NCBI GenBank assembly: GCA_016186145.1
Contig: JACPMF010000007.1
Coordinates: 19,302-83,301, forward strand
DNA length: 64,000 nucleotides
Reading direction: 5' to 3'
DNA from: Candidatus Sungiibacteriota bacterium
GTDB lineage: Bacteria > Patescibacteriota > Minisyncoccia > Sungbacterales > SURF-37
Each line of letters begins with the position of its first letter. The stretch's first letter is position 1. Below the pieces are notes generated by a model, which saw only the letters and a program-made list of their open reading frames with translations, did no database searches and was not told the DNA's origin. This document shows positions 826 to 40,548 of this stretch, piece by piece. A program made the translations under genes and the position numbers.

Positions 826-885
826 TCCCCGAAAAAGCTGCAGACTCTTAATCTGTAGATGTAGGTTCGATTCCTACTGGGGGAA
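826..885 (+). other. tRNA-like fragment / pseudo-tRNA (anticodon arm with CTT loop, T-arm GTAGG-TTCGATT-CCTAC, 3' acceptor half), lacking a D-arm
   Basis: Anticodon stem GCAGA/TCTGT with loop CTCTTAA and a perfect T-arm at 861..877, followed by TGGGGGA, which pairs 6/7 with TCCCCGA at 826..832. Only 5 nt separate the acceptor and anticodon stems, so there is no D-arm. Looks like a tRNA 3'-half remnant, such as an old att site. Confidence 0.4.
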
Positions 886-2541: not shown

Positions 2542-4062
2542 TTAATGCGGGGTCTCACCTAATCTAGGAAAAAGAGCTTTCTCTTTTCTAACAACTAATA
2601 CCGAATCTTCAATATGAATCTGCTCCTTTATTTTTTCGGCTGTTTCCGGTAAAAACGGCTCCAGTAAATTGGCGATGGTGGAAATAACATAACCGGCATT
2701 TATAACAACGGCTTTCAAATCATCTCCGGCAAGCATCCAGGGCTTCTTCTCATTGATATATCTGTCGCTAAGCGAAACAAGCTTCCAAACGCTAATCAGC
2801 GCCTCGTTCAGCCGGAACCCCTCAAGCTGGCGCTCGTACTCCAGAAAAACATTCTTACAGCCGACGCGTATTCTTTCTTCAATTTCTTTTTCTCCGCCAG
2901 AGGCGGAGAAATCAAAACGAATCGGCCCGAGCTTCGCGCCAACCGCAGCAATCCGGGCCACCAGATTACCGAGTCCGTTAGCCAAGTCTCCGTTATAACG
3001 CTCTTCAAATTTTTTATAGCTAAAGTCGCCGTCTTCATACGAAGGAAATTCGCGCAAAAAATAATATCTAACTGGATCAGCTCCATATTTATCGACAACC
3101 TCATCCGGCGATATCACATTACCTACCGTTTTAGAAATCTTTTGGCCTTCGACGTTTACAAAGCCATGAACAAAAATTGTTTTGGGCAATTCAAGCCCTG
3201 CTGACAAAAGCATCCCCGGCCAGATTGCGGCGTGAAAACGCAAATTGTCCTTACCGACAACCTGAACGTCAGCCGGCCACCACTTAGAGAATGCTGAATG
3301 CTGAATGCTGAATGCTGAATCATCGTGGCCGTAGCCGATGGCAGAAATGTAGTTTACCAGCGCGTCGCACCATACATACATGGTTTGCGTCGGATCGTCC
3401 GGCACCGGCACGCCCCATGGCAAATCTTTGCTGGGTCGGGAAAAACTCACGTCCTCAAGGCCGCTTTTTATTAACGAGAGAATCTCATTTCTTCTCGAAT
3501 CCGGCAAAACGTTCATGCGTCCGGAAACGATCGCCTGCTCTATTTGTCGGGAAAATTTTGACAACCGAAAAAACCAATTTTCTTCCTCAACGACCTCCGG
3601 CTCTTTTTGGTGATCCTGGCATTTCCCGCCGATCAAATCTTTTTCGGTTATAAACGCTTCGTGCCCCACGCAATAAAGGCCGCGGTATTTTTTCCAATAT
3701 ATATCCCCTGAATCTTTCAGCGCCCGCCACATTTTTTGAGCGCCGGGCCAGTGCCGTTTCTGGTCGGATGTTCGTATGAAATCGTCGTAAGAGATATTCA
3801 GAAGTTTTTGCATATCACGGAACTTCTCTGAATTTTCATCAACCAGCTCTTTCGGCGTTTTTCTTTCTTCTTCCGCTTTTCGAACTATCTTTGCGCCATG
3901 CTCGTCGGTGCCAACCAAAAAACGGACATCGTCGCCCTTAATCCTTCGGTAGCGCGCAAGAACATCGGCAATAAGCGGATCCAAAATATGGCCGACATGG
4001 GGCGCGGCGTTAGCATACGGGATGCTGGTTGTAATATAAAATTTATTTTTTTGATTTGACAT
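2542..4062 (-). CDS. metG: methionyl-tRNA synthetase
   Basis: Class I aaRS HIGH-type motif (PHVGH) near the N-terminus and KMSKS-type motif KISKT. The track ORF extends to a TTG at 4239. The ATG at 4062 (MSNQKNKFYITTSIPY...) is the more plausible start. A divergent gene starts at 4135. Confidence 0.9.
   Translation of the reverse strand: MSNQKNKFYITTSIPYANAAPHVGHILDPLIADVLARYRRIKGDDVRFLVGTDEHGAKIVRKAEEERKTPKELVDENSEKFRDMQKLLNISYDDFIRTSDQKRHWPGAQKMWRALKDSGDIYWKKYRGLYCVGHEAFITEKDLIGGKCQDHQKEPEVVEEENWFFRLSKFSRQIEQAIVSGRMNVLPDSRRNEILSLIKSGLEDVSFSRPSKDLPWGVPVPDDPTQTMYVWCDALVNYISAIGYGHDDSAFSIQHSAFSKWWPADVQVVGKDNLRFHAAIWPGMLLSAGLELPKTIFVHGFVNVEGQKISKTVGNVISPDEVVDKYGADPVRYYFLREFPSYEDGDFSYKKFEERYNGDLANGLGNLVARIAAVGAKLGPIRFDFSASGGEKEIEERIRVGCKNVFLEYERQLEGFRLNEALISVWKLVSLSDRYINEKKPWMLAGDDLKAVVINAGYVISTIANLLEPFLPETAEKIKEQIHIEDSVLVVRKEKALFPRLGETPH
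3291..3318. repeat. heptanucleotide tandem repeat (GAATGCT/ATGCTGA)x4 inside metG, encoding a repeated SAFSIQH-type peptide
   Basis: Four perfect 7-nt units counted directly in the sequence. A 7-nt unit is not a multiple of 3, so any single-unit slippage would frameshift metG. Confidence 0.8.
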
Positions 4063-4868: not shown

Positions 4869-5924
4869 TTATCCGTTGCCGCCATACTGAAATACCCCCC
4901 TCTTTTTACGGTCGGTATCCGACAAAAACTCTACAAGCACGCTTGCAACCGGAACCGCCAAAAGAAGGCCGAGAACTCCGCCGAGTTTTCCCCCGATCAA
5001 AAGCGCTATGATGACCACCAGGGGATTCAATCCGATTGTTCTTCGCATAACCGTAGGGACGATCAAATGGCTTTCAATCTGCTGGATGACGAAGTAAACG
5101 GCGATAATGATAAGCCCGAGAACGGGACTTTGCACGAAAGCAACCGCCACGGCGGGTGCTGCGGCAAAAATCGGCCCGATAACCGGAATAACTTCGAAGA
5201 TAGCGGCGAGCACCGCAAAAACCAGACTGTACCGGACATCCAAAAGAGTAAGCGCGATGTAAACCATAATGCCGACAATAACCCCGAGAAGCGCCTGGGC
5301 GCGCAGCCACTGACCAAGCTTCTGCTGCGCCCTCAACCACAAGTCAACCGCATATTCCTCGTACTCAAGCGGAACAATCAGGCGGAGAAAATTCTCAATC
5401 CCTTTTTCCTGGGTCGCGAGGTAAAACGAGACGACAATGGTAATCACCGCAACGGTTACGCCGCCGAAAAAATCCACCGTCAGCGCAAGAGTATTCTCGG
5501 CAAGCTGTTGAAGCTGGCCGGGCGCTGCGGCAAAAAGTTCCTGCCGGTTCTCAACGAATAAACCCGAAAGAGGAACACCGGTAAACGATTGGATTTCCCG
5601 CAGAAGTTCGCGCTGATAAATAGGATACGAAGAAATAAAATTCTGAAGCTCGCCTACAACTGCCGGCAGGGCAAGATATATAACGCCGATAAGGAAAACG
5701 GCAGCAAGAGCGTAGATCACAATAACAGAGATAATCCGTGACACACGGTACTTTCTTCCGAACTGGACGATGGGTTCGATTGCCGATGCGAGAACCACGG
5801 CAAAAAGAAGGGCGGCCAGTATTTGCCACAGGTAGTATGCGGCAGCAACCAAAAACACGAGCCCCAAAAGACGGAGAAAGGTTCCCCAAGTAATGTCTAT
5901 TTTTTCTAGTTGTTTGGTAGGCAT
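4869..5924 (-). CDS. AI-2E family transporter (PerM/UPF0118-like permease)
   Basis: About 350 aa, multiple TM helices, with a conserved C-terminal block (...LNPLVVIIALLIGGKLGGVLGLLLAVPVASVL...) typical of AI-2E/UPF0118. Confidence 0.7.
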   Translation of the reverse strand: MPTKQLEKIDITWGTFLRLLGLVFLVAAAYYLWQILAALLFAVVLASAIEPIVQFGRKYRVSRIISVIVIYALAAVFLIGVIYLALPAVVGELQNFISSYPIYQRELLREIQSFTGVPLSGLFVENRQELFAAAPGQLQQLAENTLALTVDFFGGVTVAVITIVVSFYLATQEKGIENFLRLIVPLEYEEYAVDLWLRAQQKLGQWLRAQALLGVIVGIMVYIALTLLDVRYSLVFAVLAAIFEVIPVIGPIFAAAPAVAVAFVQSPVLGLIIIAVYFVIQQIESHLIVPTVMRRTIGLNPLVVIIALLIGGKLGGVLGLLLAVPVASVLVEFLSDTDRKKRGVFQYGGNG

Positions 5925-6125
5925 GCCAAATTTATTTAAATTTTGGAGCGAAGCGATAAAATTTAACTATAAATTTGAGCACCCCGTTAGATGCGGAAAT
6001 ATAGTAGTTTTCTACGCCTGGTAAAGTTATACGTGTTATACTTTTTGTAAATTTTTTTATGGTTTGTTCCGCTATCTAACGGGGTAAAGGTTTGGCGGCT
6101 GCGATTTTTGCGCCTGCCGCTTAAA
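5925..6125 (-). promoter_or_regulatory. conserved structured upstream element, copy U1 (family also at 18405, 34662, 56461)
   Basis: Sits directly upstream of the start codon. Shares the flanks ...TTTATAGTTA...AGCACC[hairpin]GGTAAAGGTTT with the other copies. Long-range stem CACCCCGTTAGAT / ATCTAACGGGG. Confidence 0.5.
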
Positions 6126-11928: not shown

Positions 11929-13968
11929 ATGGAACGAGCGCCAAGGCCACAATTCGAAAAAGACGACAACAAAGAAGTCTCTCAAGCATGGGAGGCAGGA
12001 CTTAAACGAAGGGGTATTGAGCCGCCCGCCGAGCGTGAGCTGGCAAAACAAGAAGAGAAAGGAGACCTCAAGAGCCGCTACGATATTGCAACAGAACGGG
12101 TTGCAAGAATTCCAGAAAGACCCATAGAAACTGACGAACACGGACAGATGCTGGAGCAGGATGCTGAAATAGAAGTGCCATCGGCAGAGCCGGGGTTGCT
12201 TATCGAAAAACCCTCAACACGGATAGAGCAAGGGCGATTTTCAATCAAAGACCGCCTTGACGTTCTTCGGGGAAAAGGAATGGGACGGCTTGCGCAAGTT
12301 GCGGCACTCAGCGCGCTTGCACTTCTTAGCTCAGGAGTCAAACCGCCTGAAACCCGCGGAGCTCCAGCCGGCGGACAAGGAATAAGTGCGCCAAAAGATG
12401 CAATACCCATGAGAGAGTCCGGAAAGGAAACTGAATCGCGCGCTACCAAGTGGCCGGGGTGGGTTGGCAGAATGTTTGAGGTAGACAAAAAAGGAGAGAT
12501 ACATTTCAACCCCTGGGTTATCCTTGCTCCGGTACAATTTGTGTGGAAAGGGGAAATGAAACATGCAAACGAAAAAACTTTTGCGCCTCCTTACGAATAT
12601 GCCAGGCAATTTGAGGCAGATGCGGCCGCCAAACGCCCGCTACGACCGGAAGATCACAAGAAAATTACCAATTATGTGGGTCAACAGCTAAATCGGAGAT
12701 TTGTCGACACCATAGGCACCCTGGGTGAAGGCGTTGACCGCTTTAACTACGGAGCGCCAAAAGAAAACCAGGGAGAAATCACCTCAATTCAAATAACGGG
12801 GTTTGCCTCTCCCGAAGGCCCAAGAAGCAAAGGGCCAAGCACGCTTGCGCCCGGTAAAGTTGACCAAGAAAACTTGCGCCTTGCAAAAGCAAGAGCCGAG
12901 GCGGCCTTGGGCTACACCAAGGCCGACCTTGCGAAGGTTTCAGAAGCGACCGGAATAAATATAGCTGTCCTTGAAAAAACACTACAGAACGTTAAAGCGG
13001 AGGAGGTTCAATTTTCGGATGCCGAGCTTAAAGAACTTGCGAAACTTGCCGCAGGCCACAAGGGCGCAGACGATCTTGAAAAAATCTTCAACCTTGTTGC
13101 TGACTACAATGACGATTCTGAACAAAAAGACCCAAGTAAAAAGAAAATAAAAGACGCCAAAACAGTTAGCCGCCTGCATGATATTGTCGGTTCAAAAAGA
13201 AAAGCGGAAATCCAAGTAACGTACGACGGAAAAAATGTCGAGCGCCATTCTATCCCCATTCCCTGGCTTCCGCTTTTGCTGCTCGTACCGCTTATGCGTC
13301 GCCGACGCGGAGAACCAACGCCCGAACCGCCCGTTACTCCTGAAAGCGGCGAGCCAGATTTGCACGACCGTTACCCGTTTTTAGGGAAACGCCCCGTAGA
13401 AAAGGAGTCGGAAGAAACAAAAATCGCGCCCGAAGAGGAAAAAACTCTCCCGCCAAGCGCCCAAAATATAGAACGCGCCCGCCTTCTGGAACAAATTCAC
13501 AAAGACGTAACAAGCACCCGCCTTCCGGAGAGGGGCACAAAGGAATTCGAAGAAATGGAAGAAGCAACTTATACTGACGACCTCTACCAGTTCTTCGACG
13601 ACCCCGAAAGCATCCGGCTTGGTATTGACTACCGCGCAATGGCGGATGATCTCGACCAAAAATGGGATATTTTCAAAACATCGGACGAACGAGAAAACTA
13701 TCTCGCAAACGAAATTCTTAACGCATGGAAAAAGAAAGACCGCCTCTGCCGAGTTGAAGCCGGAGTTTCGGAAGACAGTCTTGATAACGGGCTTGATTAC
13801 GAGAATCAGCCGCGCCAAATCCAATGGGCCAAAATGCATGCGCGATCTCTTCTCCGAGTGATTGACAAAAGAAAAGAATTTAGCGAAAGCGAACGAAAAC
13901 GAATTGATTACCTCGACCTCCTCTCCCCTCAAGTGAAAAAGATGATCCAACGGAGAGGCCGCCGATAA
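11929..13968 (+). CDS. large hypothetical protein, acidic/low-complexity, with an internal hydrophobic segment followed by RRRR
   Basis: 679 aa. PIPWLPLLLLVPLMRRRRGE around residue 440 resembles a PEP-CTERM-like sorting anchor but is internal. ...IQITGFASPEGPRSKG...ENLRLAKARAEAAL... is weakly OmpA-C-like. Confidence 0.55.
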   Translation: MERAPRPQFEKDDNKEVSQAWEAGLKRRGIEPPAERELAKQEEKGDLKSRYDIATERVARIPERPIETDEHGQMLEQDAEIEVPSAEPGLLIEKPSTRIEQGRFSIKDRLDVLRGKGMGRLAQVAALSALALLSSGVKPPETRGAPAGGQGISAPKDAIPMRESGKETESRATKWPGWVGRMFEVDKKGEIHFNPWVILAPVQFVWKGEMKHANEKTFAPPYEYARQFEADAAAKRPLRPEDHKKITNYVGQQLNRRFVDTIGTLGEGVDRFNYGAPKENQGEITSIQITGFASPEGPRSKGPSTLAPGKVDQENLRLAKARAEAALGYTKADLAKVSEATGINIAVLEKTLQNVKAEEVQFSDAELKELAKLAAGHKGADDLEKIFNLVADYNDDSEQKDPSKKKIKDAKTVSRLHDIVGSKRKAEIQVTYDGKNVERHSIPIPWLPLLLLVPLMRRRRGEPTPEPPVTPESGEPDLHDRYPFLGKRPVEKESEETKIAPEEEKTLPPSAQNIERARLLEQIHKDVTSTRLPERGTKEFEEMEEATYTDDLYQFFDDPESIRLGIDYRAMADDLDQKWDIFKTSDERENYLANEILNAWKKKDRLCRVEAGVSEDSLDNGLDYENQPRQIQWAKMHARSLLRVIDKRKEFSESERKRIDYLDLLSPQVKKMIQRRGRR

Positions 13969-15224: not shown

Positions 15225-15264
15225 AACAAAAGATCACCTTGAGATACTTCAACCCCAGCGAATT

Positions 15265-15660
15265 ATTCAACAATTTTCATACCCTCCATAGCGAGCTATC
15301 CCTAAAATTTTCTATTATGATTATGGAAGCGTGACTACATAGTATAACAACCGCTCGAGCATTCCAAACCTTTTCATCTTAATCCGAGCGAGCCATATGC
15401 CATAATTTTTCATTACGGAGATGCAACTACAAATCGACGAGGAGGGTTGAAATAAAATAACAAAAATTTGTTTTAATCACCCCAGCCAAAGCGAGGTATT
15501 GAGAAAATTTTTCATTGCGAAGGCATGAGTACAAATTAACGAGCGGGCAAAACAAAATAACGAAAATTTGCTTACTTCAAATTTTCGTTACTCATTTTGT
15601 GCAGTCCGCGAGACAAATTTGTTCATGCCGCAGCCTGAAAAATTTTCTCAATACCGAGCA
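15265..15660. repeat. degenerate direct repeats (about five copies of TTTTCATn(14-25)CGAGC units) in a 435-bp intergenic region
   Basis: Units start at about 15274, 15376, 15405, 15505 and 15580. Inverted copies GAGGTATTGAGAAAATTTTT (15494..15513) and AAAAATTTTCTCAATACCGAGC (15639..15660) are also present. On the minus strand each unit begins ATGAAAA, giving tiny ORFs of 12-30 codons. Confidence 0.45.
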
Positions 15661-16155
15661 TCAAGTATGCTTATCCGCCACCACCGACGCCCCAAACGCA
15701 TTCGGCTTTATCACGGGCTGAAACCCGAAACCCCTGACCATCCCCACCACGCGATCAATCAAATCTTTCGTCGGTCCATTCTCCCCGACATCAATATGGA
15801 TTGTAATCTTTTCGTCCCAAAGCGCATCATCGCCGAGCCGCTCCCGAAGCCTGCCGCGAAGCTCCTGCGCAAGGGTAACTGATCGTATCGTCTCCTCATA
15901 AATACGGTCCTGCAAAGTATGAAAAATCTTTTTCTCGCCGTTAAACCAAAAGTGGATCCCGCCGTTGCCAATGCGCCAAACGGTTACTGCGCTCACGACA
16001 CTCACAGGATTTGTGGAAGAAGAATCGGAACCAATAATAATTTGATACGCCCTGTCTTTCTTTGCGTTTATGTATAAGCCGATTTCGTCTATCATCCCGT
16101 CAAGCGTAAGGTCTCCTTTTGTCCAACTGTGGAATATGGCTTCTTTATTATCCAT
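15661..16155 (-). CDS. YkuK/DUF458-family RNase H-like protein
   Basis: 164 aa. ...YQIIIGSDSSS... resembles the DUF458 (YkuK) signature. Downstream member of a likely three-gene operon. Confidence 0.5.
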   Translation of the reverse strand: MDNKEAIFHSWTKGDLTLDGMIDEIGLYINAKKDRAYQIIIGSDSSSTNPVSVVSAVTVWRIGNGGIHFWFNGEKKIFHTLQDRIYEETIRSVTLAQELRGRLRERLGDDALWDEKITIHIDVGENGPTKDLIDRVVGMVRGFGFQPVIKPNAFGASVVADKHT

Positions 16156-16189
16156 ACTTGTGACTAAACCCTAATGGCTAGTGGCTATT

Positions 16190-17023
16190 TTAGAACAACG
16201 TTTGCACCGACCCCGCCGGCTCATCAAGCAACCGCGCCGCAAGGATTCTTCCGATTCTGAAATTACGAACATCCTTCCGCAGGTGGCAATACGCTTCAAT
16301 CGTATCACCGGCGACTTTCCGAACCTCTATTTTTCTCTTTTTACGATGCCCGTCTCCGGCATCTTCACGCGAAATATACTCAATCTCAAGCGCCCTATTC
16401 TTTGCTGCCGCCTCTTCGGCGCACCTCCTAACTTCTTCTTCAGAAGAAAAACTCCATTTTACCGGAACCGCGACCCGCTTGCCGTCGATGATCGAATCAA
16501 ACAACAAGTGCCCGTTCTGTTTCCCAAACTCGTAAAGATCCCTCGTCAAACGTACGTCCTGAAGACAGTACCGCTCAAGCTGTTCCCAATCCCCGGCGCG
16601 ATACCACTTCAAAGAATCAAGCCCGTGACCGAGCTTTGCAGCACCCAATGTCGCCTTAGCCAAACTATCAAGACCTATCCGATGCCCCAGCCGTGCAGTA
16701 ACATCTTCAAAAATATCCAGCGCGGGAATTTTAGAAAGATCAACCGAAACATGCGGCTGAAGTACGGGCAAATCAAATAAACGAATATTAAAACCGATGA
16801 TACAGTCCGCCTTATCAAAAATGCCGTTTAACTCGCCGAGTTCGTTCTCCCGAAAACCAAAAAACTTATCGTCGCGATACGAATAAAGGCCAATATATGA
16901 AACCCCAAGAGCGGTTAGGTTGTTCCTGCCGCCGACCTCATCAAACGAATACCTGGTTTCAAGATCAATTACATAGTCGTTACGCATGTTGTTATTTGTA
17001 TCAGAAAAACCCCAGGAAATCAA
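16190..17023 (-). CDS. DEDDy-type 3'-5' exonuclease fused to a C-terminal WYL-like domain
   Basis: Exo I YVIDLETR, Exo II IGFNIRLFD, Exo III YCLQD. The C-terminal 60 aa (...RKIEVRKVAGDTIEAYCHLRKDVRNFRIGRILAARLLDE) fit the WYL domain pattern. Confidence 0.65.
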   Translation of the reverse strand: MISWGFSDTNNNMRNDYVIDLETRYSFDEVGGRNNLTALGVSYIGLYSYRDDKFFGFRENELGELNGIFDKADCIIGFNIRLFDLPVLQPHVSVDLSKIPALDIFEDVTARLGHRIGLDSLAKATLGAAKLGHGLDSLKWYRAGDWEQLERYCLQDVRLTRDLYEFGKQNGHLLFDSIIDGKRVAVPVKWSFSSEEEVRRCAEEAAAKNRALEIEYISREDAGDGHRKKRKIEVRKVAGDTIEAYCHLRKDVRNFRIGRILAARLLDEPAGSVQTLF

Positions 17024-17052
17024 TTATATAAAAATTGCCTCCGGAGGAGGCG

Positions 17053-17433
17053 CTAGTAATGTTCATAGTCCGGGGTAAATGGTTTCCCCTCTTCGTAATT
17101 CGGACAAAACTGTTTATGTTGAAGTGTATGTTCATGGCCAGAACCCCAGCAAAGTGGACAATAATGCATACCAGAAGAACCCAGCGGTTGGTATAGGGTT
17201 CCCGGCTTTTGAAACTCAAACGTCATTCCCGAGCTTTCTGCAAGAAACTTAACTCCTTGAAGAAAACCGCTCAGCGTCTTCAACGAACTGAAGGTTACTA
17301 CGCTTTTCGTGGAAGACACCAACCCTATTTTTGTGACTGTCAGCTGAAGGTCACGCTTTTTGTCTATTTTCTCTTCACCGATAAGGGTTATTTTCGCCAC
17401 AATCTTTGCCATCACCGGCTCCTTTTTTGACAA
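17053..17433 (-). CDS. hypothetical protein with C-terminal Cys/His zinc-ribbon-like motif
   Basis: 126 aa. ...HYCPLCWGSGHEHTLQHKQFCPNYEEG... Lies 29 nt upstream of the exonuclease-WYL gene on the same strand. Confidence 0.45.
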   Translation of the reverse strand: MSKKEPVMAKIVAKITLIGEEKIDKKRDLQLTVTKIGLVSSTKSVVTFSSLKTLSGFLQGVKFLAESSGMTFEFQKPGTLYQPLGSSGMHYCPLCWGSGHEHTLQHKQFCPNYEEGKPFTPDYEHY

Positions 17434-37914: not shown

Positions 37915-40548
37915 CTAACTTAACTCGCCCCAATTTTTCCCTTTCTTGACGTCAACGCCGAGACGCACTCTTCCGCGCCAAACTCCCTCCATTGCGGATT
38001 TAATTTCCAAAAGAACCTCGTCGGCGCTATCCTCTTTTAGCTCGCAGAGCAGCTCGTCATGGATCTGCAAAAGCATGCTGGCTTTCCCCAAAAAACGTTC
38101 CCGGATCAAACCATGAACCTTTATCATGGCTTTTTTCACAACATCCGCGGCCGTACCCTGAATCGGCGTATTGACCGCCATGCGCTCTGCCTCGGATCGA
38201 ATCATCGGATGCGGTGAAACGATTCCCGGCAGCGTGCGCTTCCTGCCGAAGGCTGTTTTGACGAATCCGTGTTCGCGCGCGAACTCTCGGGTGTCCTCGA
38301 TAAATTCAGCAATACCCCGAAAGTCGTTGAAGTATTCCGCAATAAACGTTTCAGCCTCCTCAACAGTAATGCCAGCGGCCTCGGCAAATCCTCTGGCACC
38401 CATGCCATAGAGCACTCCAAAATTCAGCGCCTTGGCTTTCCGGCGCAATTCCGGCGTTACCTTTTCAAGCGGCACATTGTTAACTTCGGCGGCAGTCAAA
38501 GAGTGAATGTCAAAGCCGTTTTCGAACGCCTCGATCATCTTCCTATCATTGGCAAGGTCGGCGGCAATGCGAAGTTCTATCTGCGAATAGTCAAAAGAAA
38601 CAAGCGTCCAGCCCGATTCCGCCGTAAACGCTTTGCGGATTTCCCGGCCAAATTCCGTTTTCACAGGGATATTTTGTAAGTTAGGGTTCTCCGAAGCAAG
38701 GCGTCCGGTTTCGGTTCGTGTTTGGTTAAACGTAGTATGCAAACGACCGTCTTTGCCGACAAACTCGGGCAAAGGGTCAATGTAAGTGGTCTTCAACTTT
38801 GAAAGCTCGCGGTGTCGGATAATCTTTTCAACAATCGGGTGGCGCCCAACGAGTTTCGACAGCTCAGAAAACTTTGTCGAAATCTTACCGCCGCCGGTTT
38901 TCCGGATACCCTTCGTGGTTATGCCCATTTTTTCAAACAGGACTTCCGAAACTTGCTGAGGCGAACTGAGATTAAACTCTACTCCCGCCTCTTTATAAAC
39001 CGCTCCGGTGAGAGATTTGAGTTCTTTGCCAACCTTCATGCCAAGCCCTTTAAGCGGCTCAATGCGGAATCGAATTCCGCGCATTTCCATCTCGGCCAAA
39101 ATAGGAGCAAGCGGAATTTCAATGGCTTCAAAAACATCCCAGAGCCCTTCTTCTTTAAGGCGAACCTCAACTTTCGGCCCGAGTTTCAACAAAGTTTGCA
39201 GTGTTGCCGATACGTCGCCGGAGGGCGGCACACTCCCAAGCTCAGCGCCAGCCAAGCCCTCAAAAGAGTACTCACTTTTCCCGGGATCAAGAAGATGCGC
39301 GGCAAGCACAAAATCAAAAAGTTCTCTTCCTTGAATTCCCTCTGGGAGTAACACTTTGTAAACCGGCTTTGCGCCAAATACATATTTCCGCGTATCGGAT
39401 TCAAAAAATTCTTTTAGCGTTTCGTCAGAAAAATCCCTCCATGAAAACGAAAAAATTTTTCCGTTGGGAAGCATCATGACTATTTTTGACTCTTTTTCCG
39501 CAAACGAGATCGCCGCCGAGGAAACTTTTTTCTGCAACGCCCTTCGAAACGCCGAAACCCCGGGGAACCCCATCGAACTGAAAAGCGCGCCCTGATTTCC
39601 GGCCGGGACTTCATTTTTCTTCGAAACAGGTGCTGCCGCAACTTCTTTCAAGCGTTTCACCAGACTGAAAAACCCGAGATCGCGAAAAAGTTTTTCAACC
39701 GCATCGTCGCGGCGTTCTGCTACTCGAGAAATTTTTTCGAGTCCAAAATCAACCGGTGCGTCTTTTTTGATAGTTGCAAGCTCCCGCGAGAAAAAAGCGT
39801 CTTTTTTGCCCTGAACCAGTTTTTCTTTTACCGCTTCTCTGGCAACCAGCTTTCCGCTCTCAAGCGCCTGATAAAGCTTCTCGAGAGTTTCATAAGGAGC
39901 CAGAAGATCCGATGCGGTTTTCTCGCCAATACCCTTGACGCCGGGAATATTATCGGACGGATCGCCGCGAAGACCTTTATAATCAGGAAGGAATTTCGGC
40001 CCAATGCCGAACCTTGATCGCACCGCTTTCTCATCGTAAAGAACGGTATCGGAAACGCCTTTTCTCATGGTCCACACTTTTGTCTTCGGACCAACCAGCT
40101 GTAAAGTATCCATGTCGCCGGTAACAATAATAATTTCAACCTCCGGGTGTTTTTTTTGAGTCCTCTCGACGGCAGTTCCGATAACGTCATCGGCCTCAAA
40201 CCCTTCATTCTCGAAAACCGAAACGCCAAAAGCGGCGAGAACCTCTTTCACCCTTGGAATTTGCGCGTAAAGCTCGTCAGGGGCTTTTACCCGTGTCGCT
40301 TTATACTCTTTATATGCCTCGTGCCTGAAAGTCGGCTTGGGAGTATCAAACGCCGCAACAACATAGTCCGGCCTCTCCTCGCGAAGAATCCGGAGAAGGA
40401 TGGTTGTAAACCCATACACGGCATTCGTCGGCTCGCCCAAAGGCGATGTCAACGGCGGCAAAGCATGAAAAGCGCGATGGATGATAGCGTTGGCGTCAAT
40501 AAGAACTAATTTCTTTTTCGTCTTTTTGATTTTAAATTGTTTTGCCAT
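37915..40548 (-). CDS. polA: DNA polymerase I
   Basis: 877 aa. N-terminal 5'-3' exonuclease (LVLIDANAIIHRAFHA...) and C-terminal family A polymerase motifs (...RRKAKALNFGVLYGMG..., QIHDELL). Confidence 0.95.
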   Translation of the reverse strand: MAKQFKIKKTKKKLVLIDANAIIHRAFHALPPLTSPLGEPTNAVYGFTTILLRILREERPDYVVAAFDTPKPTFRHEAYKEYKATRVKAPDELYAQIPRVKEVLAAFGVSVFENEGFEADDVIGTAVERTQKKHPEVEIIIVTGDMDTLQLVGPKTKVWTMRKGVSDTVLYDEKAVRSRFGIGPKFLPDYKGLRGDPSDNIPGVKGIGEKTASDLLAPYETLEKLYQALESGKLVAREAVKEKLVQGKKDAFFSRELATIKKDAPVDFGLEKISRVAERRDDAVEKLFRDLGFFSLVKRLKEVAAAPVSKKNEVPAGNQGALFSSMGFPGVSAFRRALQKKVSSAAISFAEKESKIVMMLPNGKIFSFSWRDFSDETLKEFFESDTRKYVFGAKPVYKVLLPEGIQGRELFDFVLAAHLLDPGKSEYSFEGLAGAELGSVPPSGDVSATLQTLLKLGPKVEVRLKEEGLWDVFEAIEIPLAPILAEMEMRGIRFRIEPLKGLGMKVGKELKSLTGAVYKEAGVEFNLSSPQQVSEVLFEKMGITTKGIRKTGGGKISTKFSELSKLVGRHPIVEKIIRHRELSKLKTTYIDPLPEFVGKDGRLHTTFNQTRTETGRLASENPNLQNIPVKTEFGREIRKAFTAESGWTLVSFDYSQIELRIAADLANDRKMIEAFENGFDIHSLTAAEVNNVPLEKVTPELRRKAKALNFGVLYGMGARGFAEAAGITVEEAETFIAEYFNDFRGIAEFIEDTREFAREHGFVKTAFGRKRTLPGIVSPHPMIRSEAERMAVNTPIQGTAADVVKKAMIKVHGLIRERFLGKASMLLQIHDELLCELKEDSADEVLLEIKSAMEGVWRGRVRLGVDVKKGKNWGELS

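Follow-up and report, generated by a model that had tools for sequence, protein, structure and literature searches.

The proofreading domains of family-B DNA polymerases (archaeal PolB, Pol epsilon and E. coli Pol II), with their stand-alone relatives in PF10108 and PF13482, are among the closest described counterparts of a protein encoded in a 64-kb stretch of a metagenome-assembled Candidatus Sungbacteria genome; we call this whole stretch the window, and coordinates refer to it unless a related locus is named. The window protein, however, has no polymerase domain: a predicted exonuclease of ~180 amino acids (aa) is followed by a WYL domain, and its gene forms a conserved, co-directional pair with a gene for a YkuK/DUF458 protein, the subject of this report. 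DnaQ/epsilon of Pol III differs in being of the DEDDh type, whereas the window protein is DEDDy, lacks the alpha-binding C-terminal segment and carries WYL instead. MrfB (YprB), the mitomycin-repair exonuclease, is likewise DEDDh, has a helicase partner and no WYL domain, and was not detected in our sequence profile search.

WYL domains are best known from transcription factors, as sensors in defence and of DNA damage. The factors in which a winged helix-turn-helix (HTH) domain precedes WYL and WCX (PafBC, DriD, CapW and BrxR) share with the window protein the WYL fold and the same conserved arginine pair, but the window protein has neither HTH nor WCX and is a nuclease fusion, not a regulator. 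Closer in layout are the PIF1 helicases of Thermotoga elfii and Thermus oshimai, which likewise consist of an enzyme with a C-terminal WYL domain, there an accessory module for binding single-stranded DNA (ssDNA) (bioRxiv 10.1101/163188; PMC8053095); their catalytic domain, however, is a helicase, and they have no YkuK partner. For the second protein, the best-known relative is YkuK of Bacillus subtilis/velezensis (DUF458, COG1978), which belongs to the same Pfam family (26% identity, E 6e-18) and conserves D, E and D of the predicted active site, but has Asn in place of the fourth carboxylate; its gene lies in the context ykuJ-ykuK-abbA-cbpB, without an exonuclease. The DUF458 family has been placed in the RNase H1 clade and predicted to be RNase H1-like, its function not being known (PMC3985635). 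The pair in the window, and the parts of its first product, are as follows.

16190-16987, minus strand: exonuclease-WYL gene, 265 aa (MBI2639641.1, NCBI name 'ribonuclease H-like domain-containing protein'; ATG start as in identical contigs)
16454-16987, minus strand: predicted DEDDy 3'-5' exonuclease domain (proofreading type, as in family-B polymerases), residues ~1-178
16196-16381, minus strand: WYL domain, residues 203-264 (Pfam PF13280)
16193-16204, minus strand: C-terminal tail QTLF, a short motif resembling those that bind the beta clamp (from the motif pattern in homologues)
15661-16155, minus strand: YkuK/DUF458 gene for a predicted RNase H-like nuclease, 164 aa (HYW90_01990, 100% identical protein)

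We compared 80 related genome loci (individual loci carry L numbers below) and found DUF458 immediately downstream of the exonuclease gene, on the same strand, in 55 of them, these paired loci spanning 38-74% protein identity. The gap between the two genes has a median of 19 nucleotides (nt) and is no longer than 100 nt in 43 of 53 cases, with several 4-nt overlaps; the identities of the exonuclease and of DUF458 to the window copies co-vary (r = 0.76). The exonuclease-DUF458 pairing is therefore a real, conserved, co-directional two-gene arrangement. It also survives loss of the WYL domain: exonucleases of 194-206 aa that lack WYL are encoded in L077 (5965-6585), L078 (6001-6585) and L080, and in L077 and L078 DUF458 directly follows them. 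Because the WYL-less forms still pair, the core of the pair is the exonuclease with DUF458.

Could this be mere synteny, that is, functionally unrelated neighbours held adjacent by vertical inheritance in compact genomes? Many loci also conserve the upstream neighbours DoxX and DUF192, which are unrelated genes; DUF458 is not adjacent in 23 loci whose flanks are long enough to show it (2 of the 80 end at a contig edge, so that the pairing is cut off there), and Bacillus ykuK has no exonuclease beside it. However, DUF458 adjoins the exonuclease gene in 55 loci, compared with at most 26 for its next most constant neighbour, the orientation never varies, the two genes nearly touch or overlap, and each codes for a nuclease; we consider mere synteny a distinctly unlikely account. 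Where DUF458 is missing, its place can be taken by another gene: 13 loci labelled Omnitrophota or Planctomycetales (within L056-L076; exonuclease identity 40-45%) are without DUF458 and carry at that position a gene for a Lactamase_B_2 protein of the metallo-beta-lactamase fold, followed in 11 of the 13 by HtpX (M48 peptidase).

The exonuclease and DUF458 families are already known, and their genes are annotated generically; what appears to be new is the pairing, the WYL-less forms and the clamp-like tail discussed below. Our literature search found no description of any of these three, and nothing relevant on an exonuclease-WYL or YkuK partnership, or on loss of replication genes in these bacteria.

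Domain searches, alignment and modelling agree on the make-up of the first protein. In Pfam it matches RNase_H_2 (PF13482; 24.6 bits against a cutoff of 22) and, at residues 203-264, WYL (PF13280; 24.6 bits against a gathering threshold of 21.8), with a sub-threshold match to the PolB-exonuclease-like PF10108. The Exo I DxE, Exo II Nx3FD and Exo III Yx3D motifs are all present, and 28 aligned homologues show no variation at D8, E10, D72, Y140 and D144; it is this invariant set that makes the exonuclease a DEDDy enzyme, as a first-pass annotation of the window had proposed from the motifs. An AlphaFold2 model of the whole protein (mean predicted local distance difference test score (pLDDT) 93.7, predicted template modelling score 0.90) gave Foldseek matches to T7 and RB69 polymerases for the N-terminal domain, which has an RNase H-like exonuclease fold; the proofreading domains of PolB, Pol II and T7 are its closest folds. 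A standard DnaQ/epsilon proofreading subunit, the identity that the first-pass annotation had itself set against its proposal, was not what we found: Exo III has Tyr (Y140) and not His, and the sole NCBIfam match to an epsilon subunit scored 10.5 bits against a cutoff of 550 and covered residues 175-233, outside the exonuclease core. Orthology to DnaQ/epsilon was accordingly rejected.

The C-terminal domain, for which a WYL assignment had also been suggested, is confirmed as such by structure as well as by Pfam: it has the Sm-like beta-barrel WYL fold, with Foldseek matches to PafBC, CapW, BrxR and DriD at probability 1.0. The profile of the exonuclease-WYL family in turn matches the WYL domain of PafC (E 2.8e-7), Y233 aligns with the W of the WYL motif, and R244 and R247 (each at least 90% conserved) align with PafC R201 and R204, the two WYL arginines that PafBC requires for ssDNA binding (PMC11804915). 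Neither an HTH nor a WCX domain is present in the protein, which begins with the exonuclease and ends a few residues past WYL. Database searching gave 887 matches to the family, of ~270 aa, and essentially all of the best 120 of these 887 are from Patescibacteria. Its alignments and predicted fold make the first gene product a predicted stand-alone, proofreading-type DEDDy 3'-5' exonuclease with a predicted ssDNA-binding WYL domain.

The second protein is a full-length match to PF04308 (YkuK/DUF458; 135.3 bits against a cutoff of 25, residues 21-164, 143 of 145 profile positions), which bears out its earlier assignment to this family. D44, E88, D122 and D161 are invariant, forming a D-E-D-D set, and the protein has an RNase H-like fold with its catalytic carboxylates; a sequence search of the PDB returned no solved structure for any YkuK relative. 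These features suggest that it is an RNase H1-like, metal-dependent endonuclease.

The pair could alternatively serve in RNA processing or turnover: the exonuclease would trim the 3' ends of tRNA, rRNA or small RNA in the manner of RNase D or NrnC, WYL, with its Sm/Hfq-like fold, would bind single-stranded RNA, and DUF458 would be an endoribonuclease. We regard this as unlikely. WYL ligands can be RNA or nucleotides, and WYL domains are often associated with defence, points to which we return when weighing the replication/repair reading.

A further feature of the exonuclease is its extreme C-terminus. The pattern Q-x(1-2)-[LMI]-[FLI] occurs within the last 10 residues in 115 of 118 database homologues and in 67 of 81 loci, compared with ~0.9% of the other open reading frames (ORFs) of those loci. 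Nearly all Patescibacteria members have Q-x(1-2)-L-F at the C-terminus or within 2-3 residues of it; the tail is kept, as QxSLF, in the WYL-less exonucleases of L077, L078 and L080 (for example LQLSLF in L077), and also in Patescibacteria loci without an adjacent DUF458, and was not found in the homologues of the 13 loci labelled Omnitrophota or Planctomycetales, which end in ..PTSIAE. In the AlphaFold2 model the tail residues have a pLDDT of ~53, and the linker ahead of them is variable among homologues, as would be expected of a short linear motif. The consensus for binding the beta clamp is Qx2[L/M]x0/1F, and the epsilon proofreader uses a motif of this kind, placed immediately behind its exonuclease domain (PMC3642679). 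One subfamily of the exonucleases fits the strict consensus exactly (QATLF, QSSLF). The tail is thus plausibly a docking site on the beta sliding clamp, a putative role suggested by its resemblance to this consensus; dnaN was not found among the window ORFs scanned.

We propose, tentatively and as a reading that falls a little short of probable, that the pair is a two-gene operon, vertically inherited in Parcubacteria-type Patescibacteria, whose predicted function is to process nucleic-acid ends in connection with replication or repair. The analysis itself shows both folds, the residues for catalysis and for ssDNA binding, a conserved pairing, the motif in the tail and, as described below, a setting without defence genes or mobile elements. 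At sites of replication or repair, the DUF458 RNase H-like enzyme would nick or remove RNA or hybrid segments, leaving 3' ends that, like mismatched ones, the DEDDy exonuclease would trim. WYL would most likely act as a single-stranded nucleic-acid handle for capturing or gating the substrate, as in the WYL-bearing PIF1 helicases, and not as a sensor of a defence signal, while the flexible Q-x-x-L-F-type tail may dock the exonuclease on the beta sliding clamp. The substrates, the clamp binding and the cooperation between the exonuclease and DUF458 proteins are all predicted elements of this scheme.

Several observations weigh against it. The tails of the window's own subfamily (QTLF, QSLF) are one residue shorter than the strict clamp consensus, so that the fit to the clamp motif is imperfect, and the strict form occurs in 49 of the 118 homologues, against 115 for the loose form. 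To these must be added the 23 loci in which DUF458 is not adjacent despite sufficient flanking sequence, and the defence associations and RNA or nucleotide ligands of WYL domains elsewhere.

A bolder form of the proposal concerns DNA polymerase I, which the window encodes at 37915-40548 on the minus strand as an 877-aa protein with 5'-3' exonuclease and polymerase domains. Pfam gave no match for a 3'-5' exonuclease domain in it, and the DxE and Yx3D motifs were not seen by eye in residues ~300-490. Pol I without a 3'-5' exonuclease is common in bacteria, and for this reason its state here is only suggestive of a need for the pair. It is conceivable, and we rate it as improbable, that a clamp-tethered, WYL-guided PolB-type exonuclease and DUF458 form a core trans-acting module that edits 3' ends and removes RNA/DNA hybrids, offsetting a Pol I without a recognisable 3'-5' exonuclease in Parcubacteria-type Patescibacteria. 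If that were true, the clamp-tethered module would be the first functional context for DUF458 and would give WYL a non-regulatory role at the replisome. More generally, DUF458 is a widespread RNase H-like family of no assigned function, and the pair offers a testable functional context both for it and for WYL; it may further reveal by what means Patescibacteria, with their reduced genomes, carry out DNA end processing.

The first-pass annotation had favoured a different function, reading the locus as a candidate nucleic-acid surveillance or defence module. On such an account, WYL would detect ssDNA from phage, or a nucleotide signal, and permit the two nucleases to degrade invader or host nucleic acid, and the account has some appeal: regulators of CBASS, BREX and CRISPR systems commonly contain WYL domains, two nucleases are combined in one module, and the adjoining spacer is an insertion site in a relative (for a DUF7387-HicA pair in L081, described below). 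The genomic context argues otherwise. In PADLOC, only generic WYL models match the exonuclease-WYL protein (2e-8 and 4e-6), which has no HTH or WCX domain, and neither DUF458 nor any of ten neighbouring proteins is matched; no defence genes occur among the recurrent neighbours in the 80 loci. Among INPHARED phages neither the exonuclease nor DUF458 found a match, the only match among PLSDB plasmids was a chromosomal-type Bacillus ykuK, and IMG/VR viral contigs gave only distant (23-31% identity), unpaired relatives. The chromosomal position of the pair is stable among relatives down to ~40% identity, with conserved housekeeping genes on its flanks (DoxX, DUF192, PHP, TrmH, Mur ligase and RuvA), and the pairing is kept in the WYL-less forms. 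On the PADLOC searches of the three proteins and ten neighbours, and those of phages, plasmids and IMG/VR, we therefore rejected defence as the leading reading and now hold it to be very unlikely. The case counsels caution, as a WYL domain and nucleases beside a repeat-rich spacer resemble a defence system, while the comparative context points away from one.

Immediate neighbours in the window are genes for MFS, DUF192, DoxX, alpha/beta-hydrolase, SpoU-type methylase, DUF5671 and PHP proteins; farther away lie MetRS, TatD, RuvA, RuvB, UvrB, HolA, PolA, a Mur ligase and PFOR.

The locus had been described as a likely operon of three genes, with a Zn-ribbon protein encoded upstream of the exonuclease. 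As maximal ORFs, three minus-strand frames are confirmed (17053-17433, 16190-17023 and 15661-16155), co-directional and with the gaps of 29 and 34 nt originally given. With the ATG starts used by gene calls on 100%-identical contigs, the products are 119, 265 and 164 aa, and the gaps are 65 nt (Cys/His ORF to exonuclease gene) and 34 nt (exonuclease gene to DUF458). Two features upstream of the exonuclease gene concern us here.

17053-17412, minus strand: Cys/His-rich ORF, 119 aa, a lineage-specific insertion (HYW90_02000 / MBI2639642.1, NCBI 'hypothetical protein')
17037-17051, minus strand: terminator-like hairpin and T-run, between the Cys/His ORF and the exonuclease gene

The 119-aa ORF does contain a Cys/His cluster (CxxC..H..H..C), retained in both of its full-length homologues, but no Pfam or NCBIfam model matched it. 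Homologues are few: HMMER against 1.84 billion representative proteins gave three matches at E <= 0.001, two of them full-length (80% and 41% identity) and the third a 23-residue stretch within a 412-aa protein (E 5.7e-4). The homologues sit in other contexts, beside unrelated genes. By tblastn the ORF was found in 0 of the 80 related loci, and in the closest relatives (exonuclease identity of 88% and 72-74%) the gene immediately ahead of that for the exonuclease is DUF192. DNA homology to the copies in L088/L089, which lie in a different context, covers only 17475-17054, that is, the ORF and its own upstream region. Within the 65-nt gap, a terminator-like hairpin (GCCTCC-TCC-GGAGGC) is followed by AATTTTTATA at 17051-17037, and a TATAAT-like sequence comes after the hairpin and T-run. 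The ORF was thus rejected as a third partner, given its absence from the 80 loci, its homologues elsewhere and the lack of a gene at that position in close relatives; and the three-gene operon does not hold, the hairpin in the 65-nt gap also standing against it; a lack of conservation elsewhere was what the first-pass annotation had itself named as refuting the arrangement. What does recur from the proposed arrangement is the exonuclease-DUF458 pair and not the set of three. By this comparison the Cys/His ORF is no part of the pair but a small insertion cassette specific to this lineage, and it has a terminator-like hairpin of its own.

A survey of upstream ORFs across the loci found small CxxC ORFs only in L017 (5590-5910) and L077 (5569-5925), just upstream of the exonuclease; the two ORFs encode 106-118 aa and carry a pair of CxxC motifs each, and although they resemble one another weakly (E 2e-5), they show no relation to the Cys/His ORF of the window.

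On the other side of the pair, the spacer of 436 base pairs (15225-15660) between DUF458 and the MFS transporter gene is repeat-rich, as had been noted before: tandem repeats, roughly four in number and each ~100-110 nt long, fill it (15226-15660). They are degenerate, with a mean column identity of 62%, and every unit has a ATGAAAAATT-like core. The units are found in close relatives only, and Rfam gave only chance-level matches and no known RNA for the spacer. It includes one further structure.

15495-15655, minus strand: long hairpin of ~160 nt directly 3' of the DUF458 stop codon, lineage-specific (from folding energy and inverted repeat)

This near-perfect hairpin has a folding energy of -73.3 kcal/mol (z -8.6), with a 20-nt perfect inverted repeat, and its apical stem, at 15555-15593, is terminator-like. 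Both L001 (~5882-6050) and L081 (~2330-2505) have the same hairpin, but there the sequence of the apical stem has changed while its pairing is preserved, and the loop is similar among the copies (AAGUAAG or AAAUAAG). It was not seen in more distant loci and, occurring in the window, L001 and L081 only, was rejected as a conserved component of the module. Possible identities are a structured 3' untranslated region, a terminator, a DNA palindrome and a miniature inverted-repeat element.

In L081, an 88%-identical relative, a DUF7387-HicA toxin-antitoxin-like pair (2699-3134) lies inside the equivalent spacer, with the spacer sequence of the window split around it, which marks the spacer as a likely hot spot for insertions.

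Beyond the MFS transporter gene, and convergent with it, an ORF at 11929-13968 on the plus strand encodes a Lys/Glu-rich protein of 679 aa that matches no Pfam or PADLOC family. Near the start of the window, a 60-nt tRNA-like sequence (826-885, plus strand) matches the Rfam tRNA model with 35.5 bits against a threshold of 29, although ARAGORN does not call it; a normal tRNA-Lys(CUU), at 738-812, ends 14 nt upstream. The sequence keeps intact acceptor and T arms and a CUU anticodon, has four nucleotides where the D-arm would be, and may represent a D-armless tRNA, a pseudo-tRNA or what is left of an integration site.

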